DNA of 21,344 nucleotides, taken from NCBI GenBank assembly GCA_014630515.1, contig GCA_014630515.1_4091.1; one strand, 5' to 3'. The position numbers and the translations under genes are program-made. The notes beneath the pieces were generated by a model that was given only the letters and a program-made list of their open reading frames with translations, searched no databases and was not told the DNA's origin. This document shows, one piece after another, positions 8,485 through 19,926 of the stretch; the first letter of the stretch is position 1; every line of letters begins with the position of its first letter. Source of the stretch: a phage.

Positions 8485-8487
8485 GTA

Positions 8488-8873: not shown

Positions 8874-8901
8874 ATTATACACTATCTTTCAGTACTGTCA
8901 A
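8874..8901 (-). promoter_or_regulatory. early sigma70-type promoter
   Basis: minus strand TTGACA, 16 bp, TATAAT. Confidence 0.6.
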
Positions 8902-8908
8902 TTACTTT

Positions 8909-9166: not shown

Positions 9167-9464
9167 TATTTTAACCTCATTATAAAAATACTATAGTACT
9201 GTAACGCGACAAGTATATTACTTGTTCTTACTTTTTCCAATCCATACGACACGACATATTCATCCCCATATGTGCGGATCACCACACCATGAAAATTTTT
9301 ATACACTTCCACTACTAATCATAACCTTTCGTCTAACCAACTGCATAGAATTATACTACTTTACGCAAATTGATCAAGTATTGATCAGATCATTTTTTGA
9401 TCAATATTAGACAGCTACATTTGTGCACCCTATGGGTTAGTGACGTTCTCGTCTTGATGTAAGT

Positions 9465-9493
9465 ATTATGCCAGTACTGGCATAATTTGTCAA
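9465..9493 (-). promoter_or_regulatory. sigma70-type promoter followed by conserved leader motif (element E)
   Basis: minus strand TTGACA, 17 bp, CATAAT; leader 9421-9460 carries the GCACCCTATGGGTTAGTGAC core; the nearest downstream gene is ~290 nt away. Confidence 0.5.
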
Positions 9494-9497
9494 TAGA

Positions 9498-9695
9498 TTA
9501 TTTTAACTTTTTTCTGTCATTGATTAATGCTTTCAGTACTATACTAATAACTTGCAATGATTCATCAATGACTATGAAATTATTCTCTTTCATTAGATGA
9601 TAGTTACCATTGATTGTATATTCTAATGAGTATTGTTTACGTTTAATTTTTGATAATGTATCAATTTGTTTTTGTACTGATTTCATGCTAATCAT
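9498..9695 (-). CDS. hypothetical protein (65 aa)
   Basis: ATG 9693-9695; AGGA SD 9 nt upstream; no clear own promoter. Confidence 0.55.
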   Translation of the reverse strand: MISMKSVQKQIDTLSKIKRKQYSLEYTINGNYHLMKENNFIVIDESLQVISIVLKALINDRKKLK

Positions 9696-9758
9696 TGTTA
9701 AACGTCCTGTAATGCATTCTAACGAGTTAAACGGTTTAGTACTGGCATTGTATAGGGT

Positions 9759-9794
9759 AAATGATTAAAGCCCACCAGCGTTAACCAGTGGGCT
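9759..9794 (-). terminator. rho-independent terminator (minus strand)
   Basis: minus strand AGCCCAC-loop-GTGGGCT (7-bp stem) followed by TTTAATCATTT; 3 nt after stop of 9801..9944. Confidence 0.55.
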
Positions 9795-9800
9795 ATATTC

Positions 9801-9944
9801 TTACATCTTGCGGATAATCTTAACAGTATCTTTCACCGATTTACCGTTTTGCTGGCATTGCTCGATCATCGCGTATTGTTCTGCGGTCAGATCCTCGCCA
9901 GTTTTTGCCAGTACTGCGTCGATGAATGAATCCAGTGCGATCAT
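9801..9944 (-). CDS. hypothetical small protein (47 aa), not in ORF track
   Basis: ATG 9942-9944; AAGAGAG SD; own promoter 9989-10016; stop TAA 9801-9803. Confidence 0.55.
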   Translation of the reverse strand: MIALDSFIDAVLAKTGEDLTAEQYAMIEQCQQNGKSVKDTVKIIRKM

Positions 9945-9988
9945 TTTGTTTCTCTCTTAGGTTAAGTTAACTACTGTTTATAAAACTT

Positions 9989-10016
9989 ATTATACAGTAC
10001 TATCAATCATTGTCAA
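9989..10016 (-). promoter_or_regulatory. early sigma70-type promoter
   Basis: minus strand TTGACA, 16 bp, TATAAT. Confidence 0.6.
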
Positions 10017-10043
10017 TAGATTTAATAGTACTGGTAATATATT

Positions 10044-10223
10044 TTAGCGGTAGTCGTCGTATGCTTTATTCACCTGGCGAATGTAACTTTCAAAGGCTTC
10101 GTCTACCGTTTCATACTCCCGAACATAATCACCATAGGAAACTACATACATCCCTTTTTGATCTTCAAACGTCATGATGATAGAATCCAGGCCGATGATT
10201 TCAGTTTTTGCGATAATAGCCAT
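10044..10223 (-). CDS. hypothetical protein (59 aa), paralog of 14113..14325
   Basis: ATG 10221-10223; AAGGA SD; track start 10295 lies in promoter; shares MAII start and Y.VS...Y....VD.A..Y block with 14113..14325. Confidence 0.6.
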   Translation of the reverse strand: MAIIAKTEIIGLDSIIMTFEDQKGMYVVSYGDYVREYETVDEAFESYIRQVNKAYDDYR

Positions 10224-10266
10224 TTTAGTATTCCTTAAATTAATATGCGTTGTCTTGATAAAAGTT

Positions 10267-10295
10267 ATTATGCCAGTACTATCAAACGTTGTCAA
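10267..10295 (-). promoter_or_regulatory. sigma70-type promoter (CATAAT subtype)
   Basis: minus strand TTGACA, 17 bp, CATAAT; same cassette as 14065-14093 and 14361-14389. Confidence 0.55.
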
Positions 10296-10314
10296 TAGTA
10301 CTGTGATAATATTT

Positions 10315-10527
10315 TTAGTTAATGATAGTCAGTGTAAAATTGTAATCCCCTGCCTGGTATAGTACTTTATCGCCGAACGTGCCAACACGTTTCATATTGC
10401 AATAGATACCCATAACACTTTTTACATCTTTGATATTCCGAACACCTGTGATATCCTTGTTGAAATTTTCATGATCAGAAAATAAAACTTGTTTTGCATT
10501 TTTCAGTACAGTGCGGATATTAGCCAT
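10315..10527 (-). CDS. hypothetical protein (70 aa)
   Basis: ATG 10525-10527; GAGGA SD; track start lies in leader. Confidence 0.65.
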   Translation of the reverse strand: MANIRTVLKNAKQVLFSDHENFNKDITGVRNIKDVKSVMGIYCNMKRVGTFGDKVLYQAGDYNFTLTIIN

Positions 10528-10577
10528 TTTGTTTTTCCTCTTAGTGGGGAGAATCATCTCTCCCCTTGATGTAAACT

Positions 10578-10605
10578 ATTATACAGTACTATAATCTATT
10601 GTCAA
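10578..10605 (-). promoter_or_regulatory. early sigma70-type promoter with 5' stem-loop
   Basis: minus strand TTGACA, 16 bp, TATAAT; leader hairpin GGGGAGAG-atgatt-CTCCCC. Confidence 0.6.
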
Positions 10606-10618
10606 ACTATTTTTTATA

Positions 10619-10957
10619 TTATTCGAAATCTTCTGGACCGGACTGATAATCATCTTCACCGTATGCACTTTCTAACTTCTCACCAGTGCAATCATCAGTT
10701 AGTGAGTCATCCTCATAGTTCACGTCTACGCCAGTGATGTAAAACTGGCTATCGTCTGGATCATTGAAATTAATTTTTTGGATGTTTACAATAACTGTAT
10801 TGATACCCAGGACACCGCCATCAGCCGTTACAAAGTACTGATAGTTTTCGCAACCGCCTGAATTGAAACCGTAATTAATTTCGGCCCGACCATCATTTAA
10901 ACGCAGTGCCTGGGCGATGAATTCGTTTTCAAAGTTAGATTGAGCGATTGAGATCAT
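10619..10957 (-). CDS. acidic protein (112 aa)
   Basis: ATG 10955-10957; AAGGAA SD; C-terminal third is Asp/Glu-rich. Confidence 0.7.
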   Translation of the reverse strand: MISIAQSNFENEFIAQALRLNDGRAEINYGFNSGGCENYQYFVTADGGVLGINTVIVNIQKINFNDPDDSQFYITGVDVNYEDDSLTDDCTGEKLESAYGEDDYQSGPEDFE

Positions 10958-11021
10958 TTTGTAGTTCCTTGTTTGCTTAAGATGGGACTATTATATAATA
11001 GCCCCGTTGTGTTGTCTAGTA

Positions 11022-11489
11022 CTATTTTACGTTAATTTCTAAGTACTGCTCTTTGATGTTTTCCTGTTGGTAAATCTCGTTTAATGCTTTAAGATCTAAC
11101 ACCTGTTTACCTGCGGCCCGAATATACTTGTTAAGAGTCGCTAACAGCTTCTCAGGCGTGTTTGTAGTCTTACGGGTAGGGATTTTGTCATGTCCCATCG
11201 CGTAGTACTGTTTACGTGGAATAGTACTGATAACGCTGCGGTACGGTTCCATGATCAGCTTGTCTGTGTATTCGTCGCTATCCCCGAACTTCATACCGTG
11301 GATCGCAAAGGTCATCATCATGCGGTCGTTATCGCGGATATTGTGGGGGCAGTCGGCAAGCTCGCGAGTCAGTGACATAGTGATCCCCACGTCGCCACCC
11401 AGCGGTAAAGGTCGGGCGATAAAGAAACCGTTAGGGAATACTTTCAGGAAGTTTTCTTGTACTGCTGCGACGAATTCGATGCTATTCAT
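11022..11489 (-). CDS. hypothetical protein (155 aa)
   Basis: ATG 11487-11489; AGGAA SD 7 nt upstream; leader hairpin GGGGAAA-cgg-TTTCCCC. Confidence 0.7.
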   Translation of the reverse strand: MNSIEFVAAVQENFLKVFPNGFFIARPLPLGGDVGITMSLTRELADCPHNIRDNDRMMMTFAIHGMKFGDSDEYTDKLIMEPYRSVISTIPRKQYYAMGHDKIPTRKTTNTPEKLLATLNKYIRAAGKQVLDLKALNEIYQQENIKEQYLEINVK

Positions 11490-11541
11490 AATTCATTTCC
11501 TTAGTTACCAGGGGAAACCGTTTCCCCTTGCTATGTAAAAC

Positions 11542-11569
11542 ATTATACTTGATTCTAAGTACAATGCAA
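11542..11569 (-). promoter_or_regulatory. early sigma70-type promoter with 5' stem-loop
   Basis: minus strand TTGCAT, 16 bp, TATAAT. Confidence 0.6.
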
Positions 11570-11589
11570 GTACTTTTTGCAAAATACTT

Positions 11590-11772
11590 TTAATCTCTTT
11601 GATACTCACATAACGCCATATCATACGCAATTGACGCTGATTTGAAATCATCGTGACGCTCAATCTCTTTCATGTCTACATAGATGATCCATAGGTTTAC
11701 GTCTTCCTGGCGTATGATAACGGCAGGTTTACCGATGATATGTGATGCCGCTAGTTCGATTGGTTTAAACAT
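11590..11772 (-). CDS. hypothetical protein (60 aa)
   Basis: ATG 11770-11772; AAGGAG SD 8 nt upstream; transcribed from the promoter inside repeat element D. Confidence 0.65.
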   Translation of the reverse strand: MFKPIELAASHIIGKPAVIIRQEDVNLWIIYVDMKEIERHDDFKSASIAYDMALCEYQRD

Positions 11773-11805
11773 TGTAGTACTCCTTATTAGATTGATATAT
11801 TTTAT

Positions 11806-11892
11806 TTACACTTCCGCACCCGGTGGGCTAGTGAGCTATCTCTCAATGAATATATAATAGCAAAATGGCTGACCGAAGTCAACCACTTTTTT
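11806..11892 (-). repeat. repeat element D: conserved leader motif, embedded promoter, variant hairpin
   Basis: core GCACCCGGTGGGCTAGTGAG; hairpin TGGCTGACCGAAGTCAACCA with compensatory changes relative to A-C; T6 on plus strand; minus-strand TTGACT, 17 bp, TATTAT (11854-11882). Confidence 0.6.
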
Positions 11893-12029
11893 CATTTATT
11901 TTTAGCTTTCAGAATCGCCGCCTTTCGCGTCATGCCTTGCTTGATGTACTCCTTTACTTTCGCTTTACGTGCTTTCGCTTTATCTGCTTTCGTTTTAGGA
12001 GTACTGTAAATTAAACCGTTAGGATTCAT
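11892..12029 (-). CDS. lysine-rich small protein (45 aa), not in ORF track
   Basis: ATG 12027-12029 directly follows TAA of 12030..12119 (TAAATG); about one third Lys/Arg; stop TGA 11892-11894. Confidence 0.45.
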   Translation of the reverse strand: MNPNGLIYSTPKTKADKAKARKAKVKEYIKQGMTRKAAILKAKNK

Positions 12030-12119
12030 TTAAATCACCATAAAGAATAGATAGGTTACTAACAATGCCGCGATCAATGCACCGACCAGGGCCGAACTGT
12101 AATAAGCTAATGATTTCAT
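12030..12119 (-). CDS. small hydrophobic membrane peptide (29 aa), not in ORF track
   Basis: ATG 12117-12119 overlaps TGA of 12116..12268 (ATGA); translation MKSLAYYSSALVGALIAALLVTYLFFMVI has one predicted transmembrane helix. Confidence 0.45.
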   Translation of the reverse strand: MKSLAYYSSALVGALIAALLVTYLFFMVI

Positions 12120-12268
12120 TTTTTAGCCTGAAAGTAATGTTTAATTTGTGCGGCTGTCAGTGCACAATTACGCAGGAAGTTTTCTGTATAACTCCTACGA
12201 GTACTGAAAGAAAATTGACCTTTGCCGTTGCCGATAGTAACATCAAACCGAGCGTTGTATTGTTTCAT
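12116..12268 (-). CDS. hypothetical protein (50 aa)
   Basis: ATG 12266-12268; AGGAG SD 7 nt upstream; track start 12298 lies in leader. Confidence 0.6.
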   Translation of the reverse strand: MKQYNARFDVTIGNGKGQFSFSTRRSYTENFLRNCALTAAQIKHYFQAKK

Positions 12269-12318
12269 TTTGATTCTCCTAGTATCGGGGAGAATCATTC
12301 CCCCCCTCTATGTAAACA

Positions 12319-12346
12319 ATTATACAGTACTGAAAACTAATTGCAA
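12319..12346 (-). promoter_or_regulatory. early sigma70-type promoter with 5' stem-loop
   Basis: minus strand TTGCAA, 16 bp, TATAAT. Confidence 0.6.
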
Positions 12347-12349
12347 GTA

Positions 12350-12496
12350 CTATTTTTTAGATTTACGCAAACTTTCTACCATCTCAGGAGTAAGGTCCGG
12401 CGGGTAGGAAACCACTTCATCAACGAAACGTAAAGGGAATACCCCAGCGAAAGGTGAACATGCTTTCTTAGTATTACTCTTTTTTGATGCTTTCAT
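12350..12496 (-). CDS. hypothetical small protein (48 aa), not in ORF track
   Basis: ATG 12494-12496; AAGGA SD 7 nt upstream; stop TAG 12350-12352. Confidence 0.55.
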   Translation of the reverse strand: MKASKKSNTKKACSPFAGVFPLRFVDEVVSYPPDLTPEMVESLRKSKK

Positions 12497-12547
12497 TTCA
12501 TATTCCTTAATTAGTGGGGAGTACTATTTCTCCCCTTCATGTAAAAC

Positions 12548-12575
12548 ATTATACAGTACTGAAAACTAATTGCAA
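12548..12575 (-). promoter_or_regulatory. early sigma70-type promoter with 5' stem-loop
   Basis: minus strand TTGCAA, 16 bp, TATAAT. Confidence 0.6.
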
Positions 12576-12578
12576 GTA

Positions 12579-12821
12579 TTATTTTAAACTTTGTGCGACT
12601 AATTTCGCACGGTCAATCATATACTGCCATTTTTGGATCTCTTCTGGTAGAAAACGATATTCACCAATAACAATAGTGATACACTTTTCAGCCTGGTCAA
12701 TGTATGTAGTATCAATCTCGACTTGAACGGGTACACGTTCGCCGTAATCAGTGCCAGGGATAATGCAATCATTATCATAAGTAACAGTAGTTGCAGTGTC
12801 TTTGATTAAAATTGTTTCCAT
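12579..12821 (-). CDS. hypothetical protein (80 aa)
   Basis: ATG 12819-12821; weak GAGAG-type SD. Confidence 0.6.
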   Translation of the reverse strand: METILIKDTATTVTYDNDCIIPGTDYGERVPVQVEIDTTYIDQAEKCITIVIGEYRFLPEEIQKWQYMIDRAKLVAQSLK

Positions 12822-12875
12822 TATACTTTCTCTCTTTGAGTGAGGCGGGAACTATTCCCGCTCTCGATGTAAACA

Positions 12876-12903
12876 ATTATACAGTACTGAAAACTAATTG
12901 CAA
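12876..12903 (-). promoter_or_regulatory. early sigma70-type promoter with 5' stem-loop
   Basis: minus strand TTGCAA, 16 bp, TATAAT; leader hairpin GCGGGAA-ctatt-CCCGC. Confidence 0.6.
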
Positions 12904-13103
12904 GTATTATTTTCTAAAAAATGATTGTATGCTGCATCAACCACTCTTTCGATAACATACGCCAACGGCACGTATCCAACTACATGACTACAATAGAAAG
13001 GACTACGATTAGAATCATCGTATGCAAATACTTTACCAGGTACGGCATCAATCACATACATATTAACCTTTAAGATGTCAATCTTATCCTGTACAGTAAG
13101 CAT
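12894..13103 (-). CDS. hypothetical protein (69 aa)
   Basis: ATG 13101-13103 lies 1 nt after TAA of 13105..13275; track start is a TTG inside the upstream gene. Confidence 0.55.
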   Translation of the reverse strand: MLTVQDKIDILKVNMYVIDAVPGKVFAYDDSNRSPFYCSHVVGYVPLAYVIERVVDAAYNHFLENNTCN

Positions 13104-13104
13104 A

Positions 13105-13275
13105 TTACGCCGCCTTATCAGTACTGGCAACCGGACGGATACGGGCCATCGCCTGGGCTTGTTCTACGCTGTATTGTTCGTATAGTCTGCATTCTTCCGG
13201 TGTAGGAATAGCATCAATACGTTTCATTGGTTTAATGATGCTTTCAACTTCATTCAGTACTTGATTAACGTTCAT
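13105..13275 (-). CDS. hypothetical small protein (56 aa), not in ORF track
   Basis: ATG 13273-13275; GAGGA SD 7 nt upstream; stop TAA 13105-13107; the overlapping track ORF 13272..13502 is in another frame. Confidence 0.55.
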   Translation of the reverse strand: MNVNQVLNEVESIIKPMKRIDAIPTPEECRLYEQYSVEQAQAMARIRPVASTDKAA

Positions 13276-13326
13276 GGTATAATCCTCAATATAAGCGGCC
13301 TAAATCGACCGCTAACGATGTTTTGA

Positions 13327-13596
13327 TTAATAGGTGTATGGTTGACGCTCAAACAATGATTGCACGTTGTACGCCCCGCTAATGGGCTTTGCTGGTAAAT
13401 CAATTTTATATTGTTCACGCTTAAAAATAATAAAACGGCAATTGTTTTTAACATCAAAATTGATTGAACGTTCCAATAGCTTTCCTTCGTGTACAAATAC
13501 AAGATAACCGCTTGCTACTTGTTTTGTAGTACTGGTTGCAACCATAGACCGACGAACATGAGTACCTGCATCGATTAAAGTACTGATATTTTTCAT
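13327..13596 (-). CDS. hypothetical protein (89 aa)
   Basis: ATG 13594-13596; AGAGGA SD 7 nt upstream. Confidence 0.7.
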   Translation of the reverse strand: MKNISTLIDAGTHVRRSMVATSTTKQVASGYLVFVHEGKLLERSINFDVKNNCRFIIFKREQYKIDLPAKPISGAYNVQSLFERQPYTY

Positions 13597-13634
13597 TATA
13601 CTATCCTCTTAAGTTAATTTAATTTCTTTCCCCT

Positions 13635-13671
13635 ATGCAGACACTATATCAAAGTATCTGCATAAAGTAAA
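13635..13671 (-). promoter_or_regulatory. atypical promoter overlapped by operator-like inverted repeat
   Basis: minus strand TTTACT, 17 bp, TATAGT; inverted repeat ATGCAGACAC / GTATCTGCAT (one mismatch) 13635-13662 spans the spacer and -10. Confidence 0.45.
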
Positions 13672-13676
13672 GCTAA

Positions 13677-14021
13677 TTAAAGATCTTTTTTGCGTTTAAC
13701 ATCAGTTACCGAACTGTAAACAGTGATATTATTGTCACGGCAAAAACGGGAAAGATAAGAACCGCGTAAAAACTCTTTACCTTCCATATTAATAACCTTG
13801 CTAAATTCTTCCATTGCTACAGTGTCAAAGTGATCCCCGTATCCATATTGGAACGGCACGTTTACTACTTCAATAAAATTACCATCAATTTCTACGTCTA
13901 CACTTAAAGAGAAATAAGTGTTACCATATGAAGCCTGGAACCAACGCCGAGCGGCAATATGTACAACTTCAACAGAAGACAGGTTGATATTTTGTGATGC
14001 GATAGTGTTGATGTTAGCCAT
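13677..14021 (-). CDS. hypothetical protein (114 aa), paralog of 6166..6489
   Basis: ATG 14019-14021; AAGGA SD; C-terminal DVKRKKDL. Confidence 0.7.
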   Translation of the reverse strand: MANINTIASQNINLSSVEVVHIAARRWFQASYGNTYFSLSVDVEIDGNFIEVVNVPFQYGYGDHFDTVAMEEFSKVINMEGKEFLRGSYLSRFCRDNNITVYSSVTDVKRKKDL

Positions 14022-14064
14022 TTTAGTATTCCTTAACTTAATATGTGTTGTCTTGATAAAATCT

Positions 14065-14093
14065 ATTATGCCAGTACTATCAAACTATGTCAA
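14065..14093 (-). promoter_or_regulatory. sigma70-type promoter (CATAAT subtype)
   Basis: minus strand TTGACA, 17 bp, CATAAT. Confidence 0.55.
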
Positions 14094-14112
14094 TAGTACT
14101 GTGATAATAATT

Positions 14113-14325
14113 TTACTTACTTTCTTTCGCTGCTTTATGTGTTGCCACTGCCATAACCACATCAGCACGAACAAAGTTAGCAACCGTATCAGTGTAATAT
14201 TTGATTGCATCGTCAACTTCTGCGAACGTCCGATACATACCACACCAAGATACTTTATAACCTGCTTTCACTTGTTCCAGCTTAACCAGTGTTTTGTTTA
14301 CTTTGATTTTAGTAATGATAGCCAT
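14113..14325 (-). CDS. hypothetical protein (70 aa), paralog of 10044..10223
   Basis: ATG 14323-14325; GAGGA SD 9 nt upstream. Confidence 0.65.
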   Translation of the reverse strand: MAIITKIKVNKTLVKLEQVKAGYKVSWCGMYRTFAEVDDAIKYYTDTVANFVRADVVMAVATHKAAKESK

Positions 14326-14360
14326 TTTTTTGTTTCCTCTTAGTTGTCTTGATAAAATCT

Positions 14361-14389
14361 ATTATGCCAGTACTATCAATCTATGTCAA
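14361..14389 (-). promoter_or_regulatory. sigma70-type promoter (CATAAT subtype)
   Basis: minus strand TTGACA, 17 bp, CATAAT; ~70-bp block repeated from 14040-14110. Confidence 0.55.
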
Positions 14390-14408
14390 TAGTACTGTGA
14401 TAATAATT

Positions 14409-14552
14409 TTACTTACTTTTTGCTTTCTTTGATGCTTCAACCTGGTCGGCCCACTCTTTACCCCATACTTGAGCATTATAATGATACTGGCAAAGAGCAA
14501 CGCCCCGCTTTAAACCAGTAATAGATTTTTTACCACATTGACAAGTTTTCAT
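14409..14552 (-). CDS. small Cys-containing protein (47 aa), not in ORF track
   Basis: ATG 14550-14552; GAGGA SD; CQCG ... CQYH spacing suggests a small metal-binding knuckle; stop TAA 14409-14411. Confidence 0.5.
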   Translation of the reverse strand: MKTCQCGKKSITGLKRGVALCQYHYNAQVWGKEWADQVEASKKAKSK

Positions 14553-14601
14553 TTTAGTTTCCTCTTAGTGGGGAGAACCATTTCTCCCCTTGATGTAATG
14601 T

Positions 14602-14629
14602 ATTATACTTTATCTGATTTACTTTGCAA
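14602..14629 (-). promoter_or_regulatory. early sigma70-type promoter with 5' stem-loop
   Basis: minus strand TTGCAA, 16 bp, TATAAT. Confidence 0.6.
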
Positions 14630-14637
14630 GTACTTTT

Positions 14638-14865
14638 TTAATTTAATTCATCCAGGCAAAGGATACGTTCTACACCTAAATCAGTTAAGCTAATAGACGG
14701 CACTTGATAGGTTTCAATGTATTCTACACTAGCGTACTGACCAAACTCATCAACTGACCAGTTATACATTGCAAAATGTAGTTCCGCACCTTTCTTGTTA
14801 GTGATAACCGCTACTACTGCCGCATTGCCAACTGTACCAGATACGCGAGTGATTACGATAGCCAT
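14638..14865 (-). CDS. hypothetical protein (75 aa)
   Basis: ATG 14863-14865; AGGAA SD; track start 14922 lies in leader. Confidence 0.6.
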   Translation of the reverse strand: MAIVITRVSGTVGNAAVVAVITNKKGAELHFAMYNWSVDEFGQYASVEYIETYQVPSISLTDLGVERILCLDELN

Positions 14866-14920
14866 TGTTTTGATTCCTTTGATTTGGAAGGAGAACCGTT
14901 TCCCCCTCTCGATGTAAAAC

Positions 14921-14948
14921 ATTATACGCTAATCTCTTAATCGTGCAA
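14921..14948 (-). promoter_or_regulatory. early sigma70-type promoter with 5' stem-loop
   Basis: minus strand TTGCAC, 16 bp, TATAAT. Confidence 0.55.
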
Positions 14949-15102
14949 GTACTTTTTATTACTTTTTGCAAAATACTTTAAACGCCCTCAATCGCATTCT
15001 AACGACCTTAACGCCACCAGCTAGGGCGACGCATCAGATAATCAGTTTAATGCGTTAGAATCGATTCTAGGCGGTGCTAGTGGACTGGAATACTATAGAC
15101 AC

Positions 15103-15129
15103 AAAAAAGCCCACTGTTTAAGGTGGGCT
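15103..15129 (-). terminator. rho-independent terminator (minus strand)
   Basis: minus strand AGCCCAC-cttaaaca-GTGGGCT followed by TTTTTTGTGTC; downstream of 15151..15633. Confidence 0.7.
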
Positions 15130-15150
15130 AGTGATTCAGTACTTTAATTG

Positions 15151-15633
15151 TTATGCTTCAACTTTGCGATGAGCTTCGATCCATTCCTCGCGAGTCATAC
15201 CGCTTTCTTTGATAGCGTCCAGTACTACCGCAATGCAGTTACCGCGTACAGGAATCATATGTTCTTCCCCGTTATCAAGTACTACAGTAACACGTTCTTG
15301 AATCCATTTTTTAGGTTTAGATTCTGGCTTATCTTCACCATACTTAACCGCCAGGGCTTTATGTGCCATTTCTACAACTACTTCCAGATCCAATCCAGAC
15401 ACCGCCGCCTGGATACTTTCAATTGTTGCTTGCAGTTCGGCTTCACGGGCTTTTTTCTGTTCTTCCAGTTCTGCTACCTTTTTGGCTTGCAGTTCTTTAG
15501 CTTCACTGTACGCAATGTTAAAATTGTTGCGTACTGCTTTCATGGTATCGTTATCCAGGTCAGCCAGCAATTCAGCAGCAATAACAGTATCGTTTGAAAT
15601 CAGTGCTTTCAGGAATGATTTTACATTAGCCAT
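15151..15633 (-). CDS. hypothetical protein (160 aa), Ala/Glu/Lys-rich central region
   Basis: ATG 15631-15633; GAGGA SD 8 nt upstream; long ~120-nt leader. Confidence 0.7.
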   Translation of the reverse strand: MANVKSFLKALISNDTVIAAELLADLDNDTMKAVRNNFNIAYSEAKELQAKKVAELEEQKKAREAELQATIESIQAAVSGLDLEVVVEMAHKALAVKYGEDKPESKPKKWIQERVTVVLDNGEEHMIPVRGNCIAVVLDAIKESGMTREEWIEAHRKVEA

Positions 15634-15756
15634 TTTATAAATCCTCAATTAAAGTTTAGTTTACGTTTATTAGTGTATCAAAGTTTTATCGACGTGTCCA
15701 GTTTTTCGTTCGACTTACTGGCGGTCTACTTAGTGCTCCCCGTCTTGATGTAATAC

Positions 15757-15784
15757 ATTCTACGCCTTTTTGTGGTAATGTCAA
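15757..15784 (-). promoter_or_regulatory. sigma70-type promoter
   Basis: minus strand TTGACA, 16 bp, TAGAAT; followed by a diverged copy of the duplicated leader block (15665-15750). Confidence 0.5.
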
Positions 15785-15832
15785 CTACTTTTTTAAAACT
15801 ATTTTTAAAGTATGCAGTACTACGATAATACA

Positions 15833-15863
15833 AAAACAAAAAAGCCCACTGTATAAGTGGGCT
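15833..15863 (-). terminator. rho-independent terminator (minus strand)
   Basis: minus strand AGCCCAC-ttataca-GTGGGCT followed by TTTTTTGTTTTTG; same module as 15103-15129. Confidence 0.7.
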
Positions 15864-15880
15864 AGTGATTCAGTACTATA

Positions 15881-16180
15881 TTATAAACAATTAATTACGC
15901 CAGTGAATGTAACTTTCTCTGTATCCATTACAGTGACAGAACCGCGTTTACTTTTTGCATCGTAATAGATGGTCGTGCTACCCTGATCATCTTCTTCATG
16001 GTACGGGCCATTAGCAAACATTGCAGGGGCCAGTTCCAGGGATTTGGTAACGATCTCAGCCGTTTCCTCGTTAGTCATTGCAACAGTGCACTGAATGAAT
16101 TTTTCTTTCGGTACATCAACGGAAGCGTTAACAGCGAAAGAGGAAACAGATAAAGCCAGGGCGATGATTGCAGTTTTCAT
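15881..16180 (-). CDS. small secreted or periplasmic protein with N-terminal signal peptide (99 aa)
   Basis: ATG 16178-16180; N-terminus MKTAIIALALSVSSFAVNA has Lys then hydrophobic core then AxA-like site. Confidence 0.7.
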   Translation of the reverse strand: MKTAIIALALSVSSFAVNASVDVPKEKFIQCTVAMTNEETAEIVTKSLELAPAMFANGPYHEEDDQGSTTIYYDAKSKRGSVTVMDTEKVTFTGVINCL

Positions 16181-16230
16181 TTGTATATCCTTTGTTAGTA
16201 CTAGGGAGTATTCCCGATTAGATGTAAAAC

Positions 16231-16258
16231 ATTATACGCATTTAAAAACTATTATCAA
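16231..16258 (-). promoter_or_regulatory. early sigma70-type promoter
   Basis: minus strand TTGATA, 16 bp, TATAAT. Confidence 0.5.
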
Positions 16259-16293
16259 GTACTTTAATATAAAAGTATTTGAAAAAAAAAGTC

Positions 16294-16322
16294 TTGACAA
16301 CTGCATCCAGTACTGGCATAAT
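16294..16322 (+). promoter_or_regulatory. plus-strand sigma70-type promoter
   Basis: plus strand TTGACA, 17 bp, CATAAT; only clear plus-strand promoter inside the gene array. Confidence 0.5.
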
Positions 16323-16328
16323 ACTTAC

Positions 16329-16425
16329 ATAAAGACGAGATAGTCACTAACCCACAGGGTGCATAGATCCGTCTATTAAATGATTCAGTACTGCAAAATA
16401 AAGGGGATCGTTTGATCCCCTCTGT
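16329..16425 (+). ncRNA. candidate small RNA (plus strand) carrying the conserved leader motif
   Basis: starts ~7 nt after the 16294-16322 promoter, contains GAGATAGTCACTAACCCACAGGGTGC, ends at hairpin 16402-16421; no SD-preceded ORF. Confidence 0.3.
16393..16421 (-). terminator. rho-independent terminator (minus strand)
   Basis: minus strand AGGGGATC-aaac-GATCCCCT followed by TTTATTTTG; 5 nt after stop of 16427..16648. Confidence 0.65.
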
Positions 16426-16426
16426 A

Positions 16427-16648
16427 TTACTTAGTAAGATATAAACAAAAATCACCTTTCTTTGCTACGCCGCCAGTGTAACGCGATGAATAGTTAGAAA
16501 CGTCTTGCACTTCTGCAATGACGAGCGTATCATCATTTATTTCGTCGCAAAAACATACTGCGGGATCTTCTACGCCAATATTGTCAGCATGTGCCCGCAT
16601 AGATTTAACCAGTGCTTCAAGCTGGGAAAGAGTAGTGATATTAGCCAT
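16427..16648 (-). CDS. hypothetical protein (73 aa)
   Basis: ATG 16646-16648; AAGGAG SD 8 nt upstream. Confidence 0.7.
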   Translation of the reverse strand: MANITTLSQLEALVKSMRAHADNIGVEDPAVCFCDEINDDTLVIAEVQDVSNYSSRYTGGVAKKGDFCLYLTK

Positions 16649-16699
16649 TGTAAAACTCCTTATTAGTGGGGAGAACCATTTCTCCCCTTGATGTAAACT

Positions 16700-16727
16700 A
16701 TTATACAGTACTGGAAACTAATTGCAA
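16700..16727 (-). promoter_or_regulatory. early sigma70-type promoter with 5' stem-loop
   Basis: minus strand TTGCAA, 16 bp, TATAAT. Confidence 0.6.
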
Positions 16728-16735
16728 GTACTTTT

Positions 16736-16939
16736 TTAATTTAATTGCTTTAAAACATAATCAAAGACACCACGCACATCATTGATCATCGCCTGGCGGT
16801 TAGCAGGTAACGCATCAGGATCGCCACTATCCCAGGCATTAATGAAGCCACCTAAATCATGGAATACTTTATTCCGTAACCCGATCAACTGCAATTCTTT
16901 TTCTTCAAGCTCTTTGATACGTTTAATTAAATCACTCAT
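16736..16939 (-). CDS. hypothetical protein (67 aa)
   Basis: ATG 16937-16939; GAGGA SD overlaps stop of 16957..17241; start region GAGGATTATCTAATGAGT is duplicated at 17241. Confidence 0.6.
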   Translation of the reverse strand: MSDLIKRIKELEEKELQLIGLRNKVFHDLGGFINAWDSGDPDALPANRQAMINDVRGVFDYVLKQLN

Positions 16940-16956
16940 TAGATAATCCTCAGTAC

Positions 16957-17241
16957 TCAATTGTAAGATCCGCAACGGTCGCAGTAGTGCCCGTCCTCGT
17001 CATCTTCTACCACTTGCCCGATGAAATGATCTACTTTCGCTTTCAGGTTATTATAATCGTTTTCTACTTCCTTTAAACGCTTCTGGTAGTATTCCAGTGC
17101 TTTAAGATATGCCGCATCAGTAGTTTTCTCCTGCATAGCTAAATTCATGCCACGCGTTTCATCGTACAGCCAAAAACCATCGGTGCACTCACTTATAGAC
17201 AATGACTTGCTTAACACATTGTACTTTATTACTTTACTCAT
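16957..17241 (-). CDS. hypothetical protein (94 aa)
   Basis: ATG 17239-17241; GAGGA SD; C-terminal CDRCG. Confidence 0.7.
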   Translation of the reverse strand: MSKVIKYNVLSKSLSISECTDGFWLYDETRGMNLAMQEKTTDAAYLKALEYYQKRLKEVENDYNNLKAKVDHFIGQVVEDDEDGHYCDRCGSYN

Positions 17242-17291
17242 TAGATAATCCTCATTAAAGGCGGGAACTATTCCCGCTCTCGATATAAAGT

Positions 17292-17319
17292 ATTATACGT
17301 TAATCTAATTACTTTGCAA
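17292..17319 (-). promoter_or_regulatory. early sigma70-type promoter with 5' stem-loop
   Basis: minus strand TTGCAA, 16 bp, TATAAT. Confidence 0.6.
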
Positions 17320-17326
17320 GTACTTT

Positions 17327-17563
17327 TTAGTGCTTTTTATAAAACATCTCAGCGGTGATATTTTTACCCGTTGGTTGTACTTTATCCAGGATCTTTTGGT
17401 GTGCACTACGCCCGAAAGAATAAGAACCGTAAACCGTTAGCCAGTAGTCGCCATTTTGGTTTACATGTACCGCACAATAAGGAACGCCCCGCGAATCGTC
17501 ACCAATGAAGTGTGATACTGTACCCGTTACGTTTGGCGTTGTAGTTTTGATTTGTTCGATCAT
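17327..17563 (-). CDS. hypothetical protein (78 aa)
   Basis: ATG 17561-17563; AGGAG SD 8 nt upstream; track start lies in leader. Confidence 0.6.
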   Translation of the reverse strand: MIEQIKTTTPNVTGTVSHFIGDDSRGVPYCAVHVNQNGDYWLTVYGSYSFGRSAHQKILDKVQPTGKNITAEMFYKKH

Positions 17564-17621
17564 TTCTCTTACTCCTGGGATATAGGCGGGAACCATTCCC
17601 CGCCATTGATTCAGTACTGAA

Positions 17622-18233
17622 TTAATATTCGATAGATTCTACTACATCGTCGATAACGTTAAATTGATATTCGTTACCCTCAATCAGTCCTACAATGTTT
17701 TCAGTAGTAAACTGGTCTTCATAAGCATTTTCTAAATCACGGTACAGCTTACAAGATAATTCTCGGATAGTATCAGTCAGTAAGTTTTCCAGATCCTCAG
17801 CCAATGCAGCCTGTTTTACAGTTAAATCAGTGTAGCGAGTATCAACGCAACCGCCTACCGTGTTTTCGTGAGCGTAGCGTGATTGGGAACGTTCTACACT
17901 CATTTCCAAATCATCTTCGTTCAATAGGTGACGGATGGAACGATATTTCGTTAACGCCTTAACCTTGCGTAAAAACTTCTCAGCGTCAACGTGGTCAGTA
18001 CTGATTGATGCACCGTCACCTTGCGACCAAAAACCACTGTATTGCAATTCAGCTTCATCTATGCCGTATTCTGGCAGTACTGTTTCTTTATAGTATTCCA
18101 GTACTGATTCAGCAAAGAAATTATCCTCACTTGCACGTTCCCGATCCCGAACCAGTTCGATAGCCGCCGCTTGTTGTTCTGCGTTCAGTTCAGAAAAATC
18201 CATAACGAAAGTAGTAGTAGTGATAGTTTTCAT
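17622..18233 (-). CDS. acidic protein (203 aa)
   Basis: ATG 18231-18233; GAGGG SD; strongly Asp/Glu-rich; largest gene in the window. Confidence 0.7.
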   Translation of the reverse strand: MKTITTTTFVMDFSELNAEQQAAAIELVRDRERASEDNFFAESVLEYYKETVLPEYGIDEAELQYSGFWSQGDGASISTDHVDAEKFLRKVKALTKYRSIRHLLNEDDLEMSVERSQSRYAHENTVGGCVDTRYTDLTVKQAALAEDLENLLTDTIRELSCKLYRDLENAYEDQFTTENIVGLIEGNEYQFNVIDDVVESIEY

Positions 18234-18265
18234 TTTGTAACCCTCATTCAGTAGTTGATGTAAGT

Positions 18266-18293
18266 ATTATACGCTTTTAAAAACAATTGTCAA
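18266..18293 (-). promoter_or_regulatory. early sigma70-type promoter
   Basis: minus strand TTGACA, 16 bp, TATAAT. Confidence 0.6.
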
Positions 18294-18390
18294 ACTATTT
18301 TATCAGGGGAGTTTTTCGTGTGCCTTACTCCTGGGCTACTTAACGGGAAGTTACTTATTTCGTTCCCCGTCCTGATGTAAAACATTATAC
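18288..18390 (-). repeat. 103-bp duplicated block, copy 2
   Basis: identical to 6908-7010; lies between two tandem promoters upstream of 17622..18233. Confidence 0.6.
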
Positions 18391-18411
18391 GCCTTTAAAC
18401 ATAGTTTGCAA
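18384..18411 (-). promoter_or_regulatory. early sigma70-type promoter
   Basis: minus strand TTGCAA, 16 bp, TATAAT. Confidence 0.55.
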
Positions 18412-18444
18412 GTACTTTTTGAAAATAGTTTTTATCTCTTTCAT

Positions 18445-18526
18445 ATAGATACATTCCCGCACCCTATGGGCTATCGCCTTGTGTCCGGCTTGTAAGTATT
18501 ATCTCACTAAGCCGGATAACGGTCAA
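18445..18526 (-). repeat. repeat element G: promoter with conserved leader motif and flanking inverted repeat
   Basis: minus strand TTGACC, 17 bp, GATAAT (18498-18526); inverted repeat CCGGCTT/AAGCCGG brackets the -10; leader has CCCATAGGGTGCGGGAATG. Confidence 0.5.
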
Positions 18527-18532
18527 GTACTT

Positions 18533-18799
18533 TTATTCAAGTACTGCAATCTTTTTAGTACTGTACACAGTAACGCGGTTGCCCTTGCGGTCGTGCTTTA
18601 TTTCTACCACGCGACGCGATACACTATCAGGACGCTTTAAAGCAGATAGCCAGTACTGAATTGATCGGGCTGTACTTTGCTTTACTACGGCCCAACGTTT
18701 ACCACGTTCAGATTGTACGCCCATATCTTTAAACGTTGCCCCGTCCTGGCGTGCTGCAATCCGAGCTAGTTCACGCGTCGCAAAATATGTAATAGTCAT
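18533..18799 (-). CDS. hypothetical protein (88 aa), paralog of 5675..6070
   Basis: ATG 18797-18799; track start is a TTG in the promoter. Confidence 0.6.
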   Translation of the reverse strand: MTITYFATRELARIAARQDGATFKDMGVQSERGKRWAVVKQSTARSIQYWLSALKRPDSVSRRVVEIKHDRKGNRVTVYSTKKIAVLE

Positions 18800-18836
18800 G
18801 CTGTTACCCCTATCGTTGATGTACAAAAAGAACTTT

Positions 18837-18865
18837 ATTATAAAGTACTATCATTTTTTGCGATA
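18837..18865 (-). promoter_or_regulatory. sigma70-type promoter (weak -35)
   Basis: minus strand TATAAT with poor -35; context resembles the 6115-6143 promoter of the paralog. Confidence 0.4.
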
Positions 18866-18884
18866 GTACTTTAAATAAATTCTA

Positions 18885-19124
18885 TTACATTCCAACCATC
18901 GCCGCACGGATCGCAGTAGTGCTATACTTAAAGCCGTCTGGAGTTTTATCTTGTCCAGTCTGTTCTAAAAATAGCATCATATGACGGGCCGCATCATTGC
19001 GATTAGTATTGGCGGCAATAAAGTCCTGGGCCAACCGGTACAATGACTCATCGTTATTAATCCAAAGGCTTACATTCCAATGAGTTTTGTTTTTGTGACC
19101 TAAGAACATTTTTGATTTAGCCAT
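18885..19124 (-). CDS. hypothetical protein (79 aa)
   Basis: ATG 19122-19124; GAGGA SD. Confidence 0.7.
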   Translation of the reverse strand: MAKSKMFLGHKNKTHWNVSLWINNDESLYRLAQDFIAANTNRNDAARHMMLFLEQTGQDKTPDGFKYSTTAIRAAMVGM

Positions 19125-19174
19125 TTTTTAATCCTCTTATATAGTGGGGAACTATTCCCCACCTGATGTAAAAC

Positions 19175-19202
19175 ATTATACGCTTTTAAACTTAGTTTGC
19201 AA
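19175..19202 (-). promoter_or_regulatory. early sigma70-type promoter with 5' stem-loop
   Basis: minus strand TTGCAA, 16 bp, TATAAT; leader hairpin GGGGAA-ctatt-CCCC. Confidence 0.6.
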
Positions 19203-19216
19203 GTACTTTATTAAAC

Positions 19217-19579
19217 TTATTCGTAAATTTTGCCACTGTCAGCCCATACCAGGAAACGAGGCATATTATCCCATGCATCTTGTTTTAAATTTAAACCGTG
19301 TAATACTTCTGTACTTTCCATTCCTGGTACTGGTTTACTATACACCGCGAAATTTTCGCCCATATACTGATAAACCATCGTTAAATCACTGGCGATCATC
19401 TTATGGATCATCGCATCAAGCATCACGGTAGCGGCGTATTGTTCACGCTTAAGCGGCAACATTGTAATAAGTTCCCGATAAGCTGAAATGTGAATTTTTA
19501 CCGTTTCAGCCGGAAGACCTTTCATCTCTTCACGGAAGTTGACCAGGTTAGCAATAATTTTATTGATTTGGGTCGCCAT
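19217..19579 (-). CDS. hypothetical protein (120 aa)
   Basis: ATG 19577-19579; track start 19636 lies in promoter and leader; first gene downstream of the ORF-poor region. Confidence 0.6.
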   Translation of the reverse strand: MATQINKIIANLVNFREEMKGLPAETVKIHISAYRELITMLPLKREQYAATVMLDAMIHKMIASDLTMVYQYMGENFAVYSKPVPGMESTEVLHGLNLKQDAWDNMPRFLVWADSGKIYE

Positions 19580-19635
19580 CGTATTAATCTCTTTTAAAGT
19601 GTAGCGGGAAGTGTTCCCGCTCTCGATGTAAAACA

Positions 19636-19663
19636 TTATACGCCTTTAAACATAGTTTGCAAG
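19636..19663 (-). promoter_or_regulatory. early sigma70-type promoter with 5' stem-loop
   Basis: minus strand TTGCAA, 16 bp, TATAAT. Confidence 0.6.
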
Positions 19664-19898
19664 TACTTTCTACATGTACTTTTAAAATAGTTTTCTTTCT
19701 ATATAGGGGAACTATTATTCAGTACTATCATTCAGTACTGAATCAACCAAATCACTACTACACCCCATAAAACGGCCTCAGACGCATTCTAACGCATTAA
19801 TACACCTAAGCTATACATTTGCACCATTCCAATCATTCCAGGGCTTTACGGGCCGTTTAAACGCGTTAAATTATTTTCAATTATTTTGTTTTTAGGTA

Positions 19899-19926
19899 TT
19901 GACTTGATCCTGAAAAAGCGTATAAT
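19899..19926 (+). promoter_or_regulatory. plus-strand sigma70-type promoter
   Basis: plus strand TTGACT, 16 bp, TATAAT; followed by conserved leader motif GACGCGAGAAAGCGGATACCCCAGGGGGTGGGAAG. Confidence 0.55.

Follow-up and report, generated by a model that had tools for sequence, protein, structure and literature searches.

A repeated element in the terminal repeat of an Asteriusvirus phage and its likeness to plasmid cer accessory DNA

What is the short DNA element that recurs at gene-block boundaries in this phage sequence, and does it act as DNA or as RNA? The window, that is the whole stretch of 21,344 nucleotides analysed, is in essence the direct terminal repeat (DTR, ~21 kb) of a jumbo coliphage, an Asteriusvirus; in vB_Ec-M-J the region matching the window is the annotated DTR (1-21,525). 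The best explanation is that the element is an orphan cer-like accessory arm and a putative docking site for a host DNA-architecture protein, with PepA as the candidate. The probability given to this reading is about 45%.

Copies of the element in the terminal repeat

The minus strand carries all genes here, so that the sense-strand form of the element is CGTTAGAATGC-N5-AGG-N-CGTTT. The repetition at three places described preliminarily is real, with end coordinates that had been drawn 1-2 nt too long: the plus-strand pattern AAACGNCCTNNNNNGCATTCTAACG has exact matches at 9700-9724, 14980-15004 and 19770-19794 (three copies, 0 expected by chance and 0 in 100 shuffles). A scan of the window with up to three mismatches finds nothing beyond these three and nothing in 100 shuffles, and within the window the 11-mer core CGTTAGAATGC occurs only there. 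The element is composed of direct repeats of 10 bp in helical phase, three or sometimes four in number (CGTYAGAAWG, CGWTNNAGGN and SGYTTWANNN). Its self-identity at lag 10 is 44% versus 17-33% at other lags. The features of the locus are as follows.

9695-9724, minus strand: copy 1, read as a solo arm; exact pattern match in 10-bp register, with units CGTTAGAATG (9724-9715), CATTACAGGA (9714-9705) and CGTTTAACAA (9704-9695)
9725-9734, minus strand: possible fourth unit of copy 1, upstream (CCGTTTAACT), from the register display
9769-9794, minus strand: stem-loop upstream of copy 1, from sequence and fold, with a Chi site GCTGGTGG (9772-9779, minus)
13293-13317, minus strand: degenerate copy d (CGTTAGCGGTCGATTTAGGCCGCTT), of a T5 IRB'-like subtype, missed by the preliminary description
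14975-15004, minus strand: copy 2 (CGTTAGAATG CGATTGAGGG CGTTTAAAGT), exact match, read as the 'right arm' of a cer-like accessory region
15053-15077, plus strand: inverted degenerate copy CGTTAGAATCGATTCTAGGCGGTGC, full-length, read as the 'left arm', with a 1-nt deletion versus the other copies
15088-15100, minus strand: degenerate ARG-box-like remnant (TATAGTATTCCAG), from a weak alignment with the ArgR box of plasmid cer-like sites
15108-15129, minus strand: intrinsic terminator of the upstream 165-aa gene, from a terminator scan
19765-19794, minus strand: copy 3 (CGTTAGAATG CGTCTGAGGC CGTTTTATGG), exact match, read as a solo arm
19795-19825, minus strand: 31-nt block GGTGCAAATGTATAGCTTAGGTGTATTAATG upstream of copy 3, from an alignment of 11 orthologues

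Sequences like the fourth unit are also found upstream of copy 2 (GCGTTAAGGT) and of the T5 repeat IRB' (GCGTTTGGCT). Copy d occupies the 9-nt/16-nt gap separating two minus-strand ORFs. The inverted partial copy AATGCGTTAGAATCGA, reported at 15049-15064, is present and really belongs to the full-length degenerate copy at 15053-15077, which is separated from copy 2 by 48 nt (15005-15052). This left arm contains the palindrome CTAGAATCGATTCTAG, and its 1-nt-deleted form, GAATCG, is that of plasmid left arms. Copy 2 and its inverted partner are predicted to pair, either as a cruciform or, in RNA that reads through, as a long hairpin (-38.6 kcal/mol, z -2.7). The position taken by the XerC/XerD core in plasmids is occupied after copy 2 by a standard early promoter of the phage. 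At least 23 cassettes combining a promoter with a stem-loop are present in the window.

The adjoining terminator or boundary that had been ascribed to each copy is found in part. A good intrinsic terminator (15129-15108) precedes copy 2 by 103 nt. The stem-loop 44 nt upstream of copy 1 is devoid of a U-run and does not score as a terminator. Copy 3 has no terminator; it is the first feature past the non-coding genome end (1.5 kb) and stands at the junction with the first gene. The genome-wide motif scan, proposed as a check in the preliminary description, gives a strongly non-random distribution confined to the terminal repeat: in Asteriusvirus ECO103 4-12-1 (351,992 bp) all copies with up to three mismatches and both degenerate ones fall within 21.7 kb collinear with the window, and shuffles give 0 matches at the same threshold.

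Counterparts in other phages and in plasmid cer-type sites

The T5 genome contains an exact copy (AY587007, 9271-9295), which is unannotated and lies beside the injection-stop (iss) region. Two degenerate T5 copies, 5281-5305 and 6189-6213, are the annotated 'inverted repeat B' (IRB) and 'inverted repeat B'' (IRB'), repeats to which no function is ascribed in T5 (Davison, bioRxiv 10.1101/866236). All matches of the T5 scan are in the left and right terminal repeats. The window copies and IRB/IRB' conform to one family consensus, CGTYAGAAWGCG..AGG.SGYTT, and the unit CGTTTTAGGC is both unit C of the third T5 copy and unit B of IRB'. Further features common to the T5 copies and the window are the confinement to a long terminal repeat with first-expressed genes, the placement after a terminator (in T5, 58 nt past the terminator palC) and the divergent orientation of paired copies. 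The element is also found in Justusliebigvirus inny, 41 nt past a terminator at a convergent gene junction, and in Stx phages, where it precedes a DUF7301 gene.

Unlike the window, the T5-like phages have a LexA-box-like palindrome and paired DnaA boxes ~37 bp past each arm, and their arm pair flanks a 2-4 kb operon. This IRD-spacer-IRC module is absent from the window, which has no DnaA-box or CTGT-N8-ACAG match, the sole exception being one DnaA*-type 9-mer distant from the element. A search for a protein common to the T5 repeat and the Asteriusvirus, inny or Stx loci found none, and a host factor is therefore more likely than a phage factor.

The most informative relatives are in plasmids. 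In a BLAST search of 28 Gb of E. coli genomes, the element matched small plasmids (E = 0.02). ColE2-type plasmids and their relatives have CGTCAGAACGCGTCTGAGGGCGTTTTAA immediately 5' of GGTGCGTACAA-cgggag-TTATGGTAAAT, and an inverted copy lies 48 nt upstream, touching the ARG box. The block is positioned 4-5 nt upstream of the XerC arm of these cer-type multimer-resolution sites, between the ArgR box and the crossover core. It is present in six diverse cer-like sites, ColE1 cer included, and more than 2000 plasmids have the cer-like site with the block. Copies 1-3 match the right accessory arm that is conserved in the six sites immediately before the XerC arm. In an alignment with five plasmid cer-like sites, copy 2 coincides with this block, and the copy-2 pair aligns along it. 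Copy 3 is identical to the ColE2-type block at 24 of 28 positions, and a T5-like copy to plasmid L167 at 27 of 32. The inverted left arm ~48 bp from the right arm is a property of copy 2 only; the spacing is 48 nt in the plasmids and 37 nt in L145. The plasmid case is the informative one because its layout equals that of copy 2 with its inverted partner.

The phage element and the cer-type sites (ColE1 cer; ColE2-type mrs) have in common the block CGTCAGAA..GCG..AGGGCGTTTTA, the inverted partner ~48 bp off, the ~10-bp phasing and an occurrence only in Enterobacteriaceae replicons. These alignments show a strong homology of the phage element to the plasmid cer accessory block. The phage copies differ from cer-type sites in what surrounds them. 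A scan for the Xer core (GGTGCGYAYAA-N6-8-TTATGKTAAAT, with up to four and up to two mismatches) finds cores in plasmids L167, L168 and ColE1, and no XerC/XerD core beside the phage copies in the window, the T5 repeat, inny, Stx phages and L145. A functional ARG box accompanies no phage copy: there is none at copies 1 and 3, and copy 2 has only the degenerate remnant TATAGTATTCCAG, which is off the ARG-box consensus and shifted by a 10-nt insertion relative to the plasmid ArgR box. The phage copies are mostly solo arms, and they reside in the terminal repeats of virulent phages, which have no need for dimer resolution.

The accessory region of cer is bound by ArgR and PepA, the latter requiring specific yet undefined sequences. 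The segment from the ARG box to the core is curved by A/T tracts phased at ~10.5 bp, and in ColE1 cer PepA together with ArgR wraps this intrinsically curved accessory region (PMC2831885, PMC2409434, PMC2655662, PMC5357621).

Two other resemblances were considered. One half-site of the E. coli DeoR operator (TGTTAGAAT(T/A)CTAACA; K-12 deo region), GTTAGAAT, is identical in the element. The operator is a 16-bp palindrome of two abutting half-sites; the element lacks the second half-site at the spacing required, and its other bases are unrelated, so that the likeness is a resemblance only. The PeSL-type mobile early-promoter cassettes reportedly described in T4-like phages by Arbiol et al. in 2010 are, like the element, short repeated regulatory DNA bordering small early genes in a plastic region. 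Unlike them, the element has no promoter hexamers and no stem-loop, and it occurs in plasmids too.

Relics and signals in RNA as alternatives

The rival that survives best holds that a plasmid cer-like accessory region was captured and that its pieces spread in the terminal repeat by duplication or gene conversion with neighbouring genes, the copies persisting solely at places of overlap with another feature, for instance a conserved block or a ribosome-binding site. Such an origin without function appears rather unlikely. It is a serious rival because copy 2 is decaying in related phages: 8 of its 20 fixed positions vary among orthologues, comparable to its flanks, which leaves no detectable constraint, and copy 2, its partner and the flanks decay at an equal rate. 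The gene downstream of copy d has a decayed paralogue in the DNA past copy 3, indicating a joint duplication of gene and element. Most Asteriusviruses contain a further copy inside a coding sequence, which suggests passive spread and counts against function, and the window has this copy deleted without consequence. Neither the Xer core nor the ARG box has been kept.

The remaining copies are conserved. No fixed position out of 20 varies in copy 1 (10 Asteriusvirus orthologues) or in copy d, which is kept in all orthologues, and one of 20 varies in copy 3 (11 orthologues); pooled, these copies vary at 1/60 fixed positions versus 5/15 N positions. Copies 1 and d could be conserved merely because they overlap ribosome-binding regions, and copy 3 is part of a larger conserved block, as the adjoining 31 nt (19795-19825) are nearly as conserved as the element, with two variable columns, both from phage EJP2. 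Against the relic explanation, the same 25 bp are found in four unrelated coliphage groups with unrelated flanks, and the T5 and Asteriusvirus copies are both confined to terminal repeats. Furthermore, the fixed and free positions are identical across lineages, whereas neutral decay would produce scattered changes. This includes a T5-like sample that was anchored on the flank, and hence unselected for the motif, in which 3/20 fixed positions vary versus 4/5 N positions.

A translation-initiation or leader module acting in RNA, with AGG as the Shine-Dalgarno core and the upstream half travelling with small early genes, is improbable. The AGGA of copy 1 is the Shine-Dalgarno sequence of a 65-aa gene, the last base of the copy being the A of its ATG (9695-9693), and this gene (ORF 9498-9695) belongs over its full length to phrog_36844 (E 1e-45). 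In 6 of ~13 independent contexts AGG is followed 7-12 nt later by a start codon, two of these belonging to real genes, phrog_36844 at copy 1 and DUF7301 at the Stx-phage copy, and the element and the neighbouring genes have mostly the same orientation. Shine-Dalgarno spacing (AGG 5-13 nt before a real start) is found at copy 1 and in the Stx phages and not at copy 2 or in the T5-likes, and of 11 orthologues of copy 3 only 5 have the ATG behind it; copy 2, the T5-like copies and the inny copy are all without a downstream ORF. In T5, IRB' is within a region of divergent promoters and IRB has an antisense orientation to the local transcript. Complementarity to rRNA is not above that of shuffles, the inverted pairs and the 10-bp periodic repeat are DNA-type features, and the plasmid block precedes a recombination core and not a gene. 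The folds of single copies are inconsistent (z +1.1, -2.0, -1.2 and 0.07), and Rfam covariance models have no match in the window at gathering thresholds.

Little probability is also given to a weak or conditional promoter resembling Pcer of the same cer segment, with TAGAAT as the -10 hexamer and short leaders starting near AGG. TAGAAT is close to the consensus of a -10 hexamer and has a GC-rich discriminator after it, the element is placed past terminators and ahead of genes, and no other promoter is recognisable for the 65-aa gene that follows copy 1. Nevertheless, there is no -35 hexamer or TGn extension at 15-18 bp (copies 1-3; 12 contexts inspected), and the critical -12 T and -7 T vary in the family (CAGAAT, TAGAAA, CAGAAA, TAGCGG), while the third hexamer position, normally variable, is invariant. 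The Pcer hexamers were not located on the ColE1 sequence and their overlap with the block is only presumed. A search for sigma-70 promoters (hexamers 16-18 bp apart or an extended -10) found no promoter-like site overlapping any copy.

The placement at block boundaries noted in the preliminary description stands and recurs in T5 and inny, but nothing was found in support of the action on transcript 3' ends suggested there. Such a termination-associated signal is very improbable: in five or six contexts the element does follow a hairpin or terminator at 27-103 nt, a position that most transcripts would therefore never reach, but it has no intrinsic terminator features or conserved fold (copies 1-3 contain no intrinsic terminator, hairpin or U-tract), and copies 1 and d are within operon 5' leaders, immediately upstream of gene starts. 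In T5, two of the three copies are never sense-oriented in any known transcript. The element does not encode protein, is no structured RNA and is neither a sigma-70 promoter nor a terminator.

A possible role of the orphan arms

Both the 10-bp periodicity of the repeats and their homology to the accessory DNA of plasmid cer sites are indicative of a protein site at the DNA level. Copy 2, its inverted partner and the ARG-box-like remnant match the plasmid layout of ARG box, left arm, ~48 bp and right arm, and copies 1, 3 and the copy at 13293 are solo right arms. The binding of PepA, or of any protein, and an effect on the phage are suggested by analogy with cer. Against PepA it can be said that the block itself is a putative target only, that ColE1 cer, in which PepA binding is documented, has only a shortened two-unit version (gcgCTGAACGCGTTTTAGC) scoring poorly with the 25-nt matrix, and that in the carAB control region, the other known PepA target, the motif match is not above chance.

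In the proposed mechanism, a host architectural protein, possibly PepA, would dock on the element and bend or wrap the DNA at the junctions of early transcription units. Since directly repeated cer accessory regions synapse, it is conceivable that the element could pair copies within one repeat, or the left terminal repeat with the right one.

Copies of the element and their setting in the terminal repeat

The window is 90-94% identical to the Asteriusvirus jumbo coliphages (e.g. 121Q, PBECO4, SP27 and UB) and, in reverse orientation, is collinear with a direct terminal repeat annotated in vB_Ec-M-J (21,525 bp). A repeat of ~21 kb has been confirmed experimentally in fEgEco12 (PMC13070987). 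In genome orientation, the 1.5-kb non-coding genome end (window 21344 to ~19800) is followed by about 50 small early genes, and most early genes of the window have their own TTGACA/TTGCAA-16-TATAAT promoter and a downstream stem-loop. Nearly all genes lie on the minus strand, and the 25-bp element is therefore read on that strand as CGTTAGAATGC-N5-AGG-N-CGTTT. The three copies reported in the preliminary description were found at their places, and the inverted partial copy that it gave for 15049-15064 was confirmed and extends to a full-length degenerate copy. The copies are:

9700-9724 (-): copy 1
13293-13317 (-): copy d, an additional degenerate copy
14980-15004 (-): copy 2
15053-15077 (+): inverted degenerate copy, the partner of copy 2
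19770-19794 (-): copy 3

No extra match appeared in the window with up to three mismatches allowed, and none in 100 shuffles. The unannotated 351,992-bp genome of the relative ECO103 4-12-1 was assembled and scanned. All copies with three or fewer mismatches and both degenerate copies are confined to a 21.7-kb stretch that is collinear with the window. In shuffled ECO103 genomes no copy reached this threshold. The random genomic distribution by which the preliminary description would have been refuted was thus not found, the copies occurring in the terminal-repeat region only.

In most Asteriusviruses the gene that follows copy d has an extra copy of the element (CCTGAGAATGCGTTACAGGACGTTA) in its coding sequence (9339-9363 of L030, the vB_Ec-M-J locus). 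It is absent from the window (~13130), where a 106-nt deletion removes it and alters the C-terminus of the encoded protein. The endpoints of this deletion do not lie in an element copy and the collinearity breaks with ECO103 fall elsewhere, both of which speak against the copies as mosaic or recombination breakpoints.

The terminal repeat is rich in other signals. The palindrome CAGTACTG occurs 42 times in the window against 0.27 expected (e.g. 3705-3712, 7844-7851, 12325-12332, 16706-16713 and 20886-20893), often between the -35 and -10 hexamers of early promoters, and 204 times in ECO103, including 39 in the terminal-repeat region; it looks like the operator of a global early-gene regulator. 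Chi (GCTGGTGG) is found eight times on the minus strand (2118, 3581, 4984, 7062, 8309, 9772, 15014 and 20676) and once on the plus strand (20688), with ~0.3 expected per strand, and 11 of the 28 Chi sites of ECO103 are within the repeat. In the prevailing orientation the sites would attenuate RecBCD that comes in from the right end of the genome; the left end would be covered by the one site of opposite orientation, located ~650 bp from it.

A cassette of 50-110 nt accompanies almost all small genes (at least 23 copies in 1274-19673, repeat families D1-D9); in it, a TTGACA/TTGCAA-16-TATAAT promoter is followed by 'TTTTACATCGAG', a GC-rich stem-loop and a Shine-Dalgarno sequence. These cassettes resemble the mobile PeSL regulatory cassettes found in T4-type phages. 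A repeat of 85-128 nt (2156-2240, 4077-4161, 7075-7159 and also 11775-11902) holds the hairpin AAAGGGATTGACTCCGGTCAGTCCCTTT, in which a promoter-like TTGACT-17-TATTAT is embedded, followed by the motif GCACCC(T/G)(A/G)TGGG(C/T), recurring six times. The 213-aa ORF at 4171-4812 (-) has a weak, sub-threshold match to a protein kinase domain (PF00069, E 0.005). The non-coding genome end contains about 13 tandem 8-bp units (CTAGACGG / CTAAACGT / CTGGATGG) at 20370-20521, with ATTTTGGRCGKA four times nearby; the unit CTAGACGT is the MetJ box AGACGTCT circularly permuted. A strong promoter-like site, TTGACT-16-TATAAT at 19899-19926 (+), faces away from the genes and is directed to the physical genome end across this repeat-rich 1.5 kb.

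Carriers outside Asteriusvirus

An exact-pattern scan of IMG/VR matched T5-like phages and 121Q. The T5 copy (AY587007, 9271-9295) is located 58 nt past the terminator palC, and the LexA-box-like palindrome palD follows it at a distance of 37 nt. The copy lies within the untranslated 'Repeat Region 3' that holds the injection-stop signal. Two further T5 copies, both degenerate, correspond to the repeats annotated as 'inverted repeat B' (IRB) and 'inverted repeat B'' (IRB'), which were given without a function in Davison's analysis (10.1101/866236). In most T5-like phages IRB' and the third copy are divergent and flank the rightward pre-early operon.

The injection-stop region itself (L028, i.e. 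AY587007 7800-10800; locus 1531-1550 and 1669-1838) resembles a set of sites for host regulators, with palD a perfect LexA box (TACTGTATAAATATACAGTA) and strong Fur-box matches (GAGAATCATTATC) in the four copies of 'direct repeat C'. Its DnaA boxes were known already. A second short identity, TATCTCGTAGGGCGGCAATG on the sense strand, joins window 1714-1733 and 2032-2050 to AY587007 5019-5038 (20/20 and 19/19 nt); in the window it is part of the leader, shortly after two of the early promoters, and in T5, where it belongs to the terminal repeat, it is in the untranslated Repeat Region 1.

Relaxed scans gave three more carrier groups beyond the T5-likes and Asteriusvirus. Stx-converting lambdoid phages have one element locus, in the nin region; Justusliebigvirus phage inny has the element at a convergent gene junction, 41 nt past a terminator, and the same copy is found at two other loci (L062 and L105); two metagenomic phages also carry it. 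The strict pattern gave one match in 596 Gb of bacterial genomes, which is chance level and argues against a host chromosomal regulon. No phage protein common to all carriers was found by blastp, tblastn or phmmer.

BLAST of a T5-like element against 5,426 E. coli genomes matched Stx prophages and small plasmids. A colicin-E2 plasmid and its Mob/Rep relative both contain the block CGTCAGAA(C/A)GCG..TGAG(G/A)GCGTTTTA, which precedes by 4-5 nt a canonical core of the cer type for multimer resolution by XerC/XerD (GGTGCGTACAA-cgggag-TTATGGTAAAT). An inverted copy of the block, 48 nt upstream and abutting the ARG box, has the same 1-nt-deleted form, GAATCG, as window 15053-15077. The block stands just before the XerC arm in six diverse cer-like sites, ColE1 cer among them, and more than 2000 plasmids match this cer-like site. 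The copy-2 locus can be aligned with the plasmids over the entire accessory segment, including a degenerate ARG-box-like remnant; the plasmids then continue into the Xer core, whereas phage copy 2 has an early promoter in its place. No Xer core was found beside the phage copies, and T5-like copies still contain ...CGTTTTAGCGGT, the sequence that joins the block to the beginning of the XerC arm. IRB/IRB' and the cer accessory regions are each known already; among the papers searched, none ties them to each other, or either to jumbo-phage terminal repeats, and a text search of these papers for the element sequence returned unrelated primers only.

Anatomy, constraint and alternative readings

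The element is made up of three tandem 10-bp units, CGTYAGAAWG, CGWTNNAGGN and SGYTTWANNN, and its self-identity is 44% at lag 10 against 17-33% at other lags. The units are interchangeable, because the 10-mer CGTTTTAGGC serves as unit C of the third T5 copy and as unit B of IRB'. The helical-repeat periodicity, the inverted pairs and the location of T5 copies outside any sense transcript argue for a site acting at the level of DNA.

Among Asteriusvirus orthologues, none of the 20 fixed positions varies in copy 1 (flanks 9/70 and 5/70) or in copy d (flanks 5/70 and 7/70), and one varies in copy 3 (distal flanks 30/70 and 41/70), where the 31 nt upstream are almost as conserved (2 variable columns). 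The N positions of these three copies vary at 5 of 15. A T5-like sample anchored on flanking sequence, and hence independent of the motif, had rare variation at 3/20 fixed positions, variation at 4/5 N positions and ~27% variable flank positions; across the lineages it is always the same positions that are free. Maintenance does not extend to every copy. Copy 2 varies at 8/20 fixed positions (flanks 35/70 and 23/70), i.e. at the same pace as its own flanks; in most relatives AGG has become AGA or AGT, and TH47, CMSTMSU and EJP2 have further changes.

For individual copies a leader or promoter reading is possible. The Shine-Dalgarno sequence of a real 65-aa gene (phrog_36844) is provided by copy 1, and that of a DUF7301 gene by the Stx-phage copy. 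Downstream of copy 3 there is a decayed paralogue of the gene that follows copy d. A ribosome-binding role looks secondary, since no downstream ORF exists at copy 2, at any T5-like copy or at the inny copy. As to promoters, sigma-70 in several registers and, by eye, alternative sigma consensus sequences did not fit, and no sigma-70 promoter overlaps the element; nor was an overlapping terminator found in the window.

Other readings fared worse. Structured RNA is contradicted by the lack of an Rfam match, inconsistent folds, no covariation and unremarkable z-scores, and complementarity to 16S, 23S or 5S rRNA did not exceed shuffles. Sense-strand coding is blocked by TAG in frame 1 and closed upstream frames, and the mini-ORF M-R-x-R-x-F is lost (AAG for ATG) in IRB-type and some T5-like copies. 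Antisense coding of K-R-P-x-S/T-H-S-N has some synonymous-looking changes, yet among unrelated phages 5/8 third positions do not vary, and there is no consistent ORF. The known E. coli DNA sites of Tus/Ter, dif, IHF, Fis, ArcA, OmpR, PhoP, CpxR, TorR, RcsB, OxyR, CytR, CRP-S and MetJ gave no convincing fit, and real DeoR operators have one half-site in common only. The half-site CGTTAGAAT alone occurs at chance; RGGNCGTTT alone was found five times where 0.9 would be expected, but three of these matches are the element copies themselves.

A candidate docking site for a host protein

The cer accessory region is ~180 bp long; ArgR binds its ARG box and PepA both sides of it. With ~200 bp wrapped around it, PepA brings directly repeated cer sites into synapsis. 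The specific sequences that PepA requires were never defined. The segment between ARG box and core is curved by A/T tracts phased at ~10.5 bp and also holds the Pcer promoter and a FIS site (PMC2655662, PMC2409434, PMC2831885, PMC5357621, PMC4393325).

Since the carriers have no phage protein in common, a host factor is the economical candidate, and the reading ranked first is therefore that the element may be an orphan cer-type accessory arm, a candidate site at which an architectural protein of the host docks, probably PepA. Three caveats apply: the ColE1 cer block has two units only, the element matrix has no match on the carAB target of PepA, and copy 2 is decaying. The main rival is that the copies are relics, as the pace of change at copy 2 would suggest and the fixed positions of copies 1, 3 and d would not.

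In its full form the docking-site reading is a long shot, to which we give a probability of roughly 7%: the arm would be the long-sought sequence-specific recognition element of PepA or another host architectural factor, and orphan copies would anchor or synapse the first-entering DNA of phages with long terminal repeats. In T5 this would form part of the unexplained control of injection stop and second-step transfer. In Asteriusvirus the three copies, spaced ~5 kb apart, would mark blocks of staged delivery or expression, or would serve circularisation by pairing the left repeat with the right one.

One DNA module is common to three things that have been studied separately, namely T5 IRB/IRB' with the iss-proximal region, the terminal repeat of ~350-kb jumbo coliphages and the plasmid cer accessory region. 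Should the copies be relics, one and the same plasmid-type block of DNA is still documented in four unrelated groups of coliphages, in the regions that are expressed first. Should the arm be a host-factor site, it would provide a concrete candidate motif for PepA, and the 40-year-old question of which feature of T5 first-step-transfer DNA is recognised, and by what, would become directly testable.
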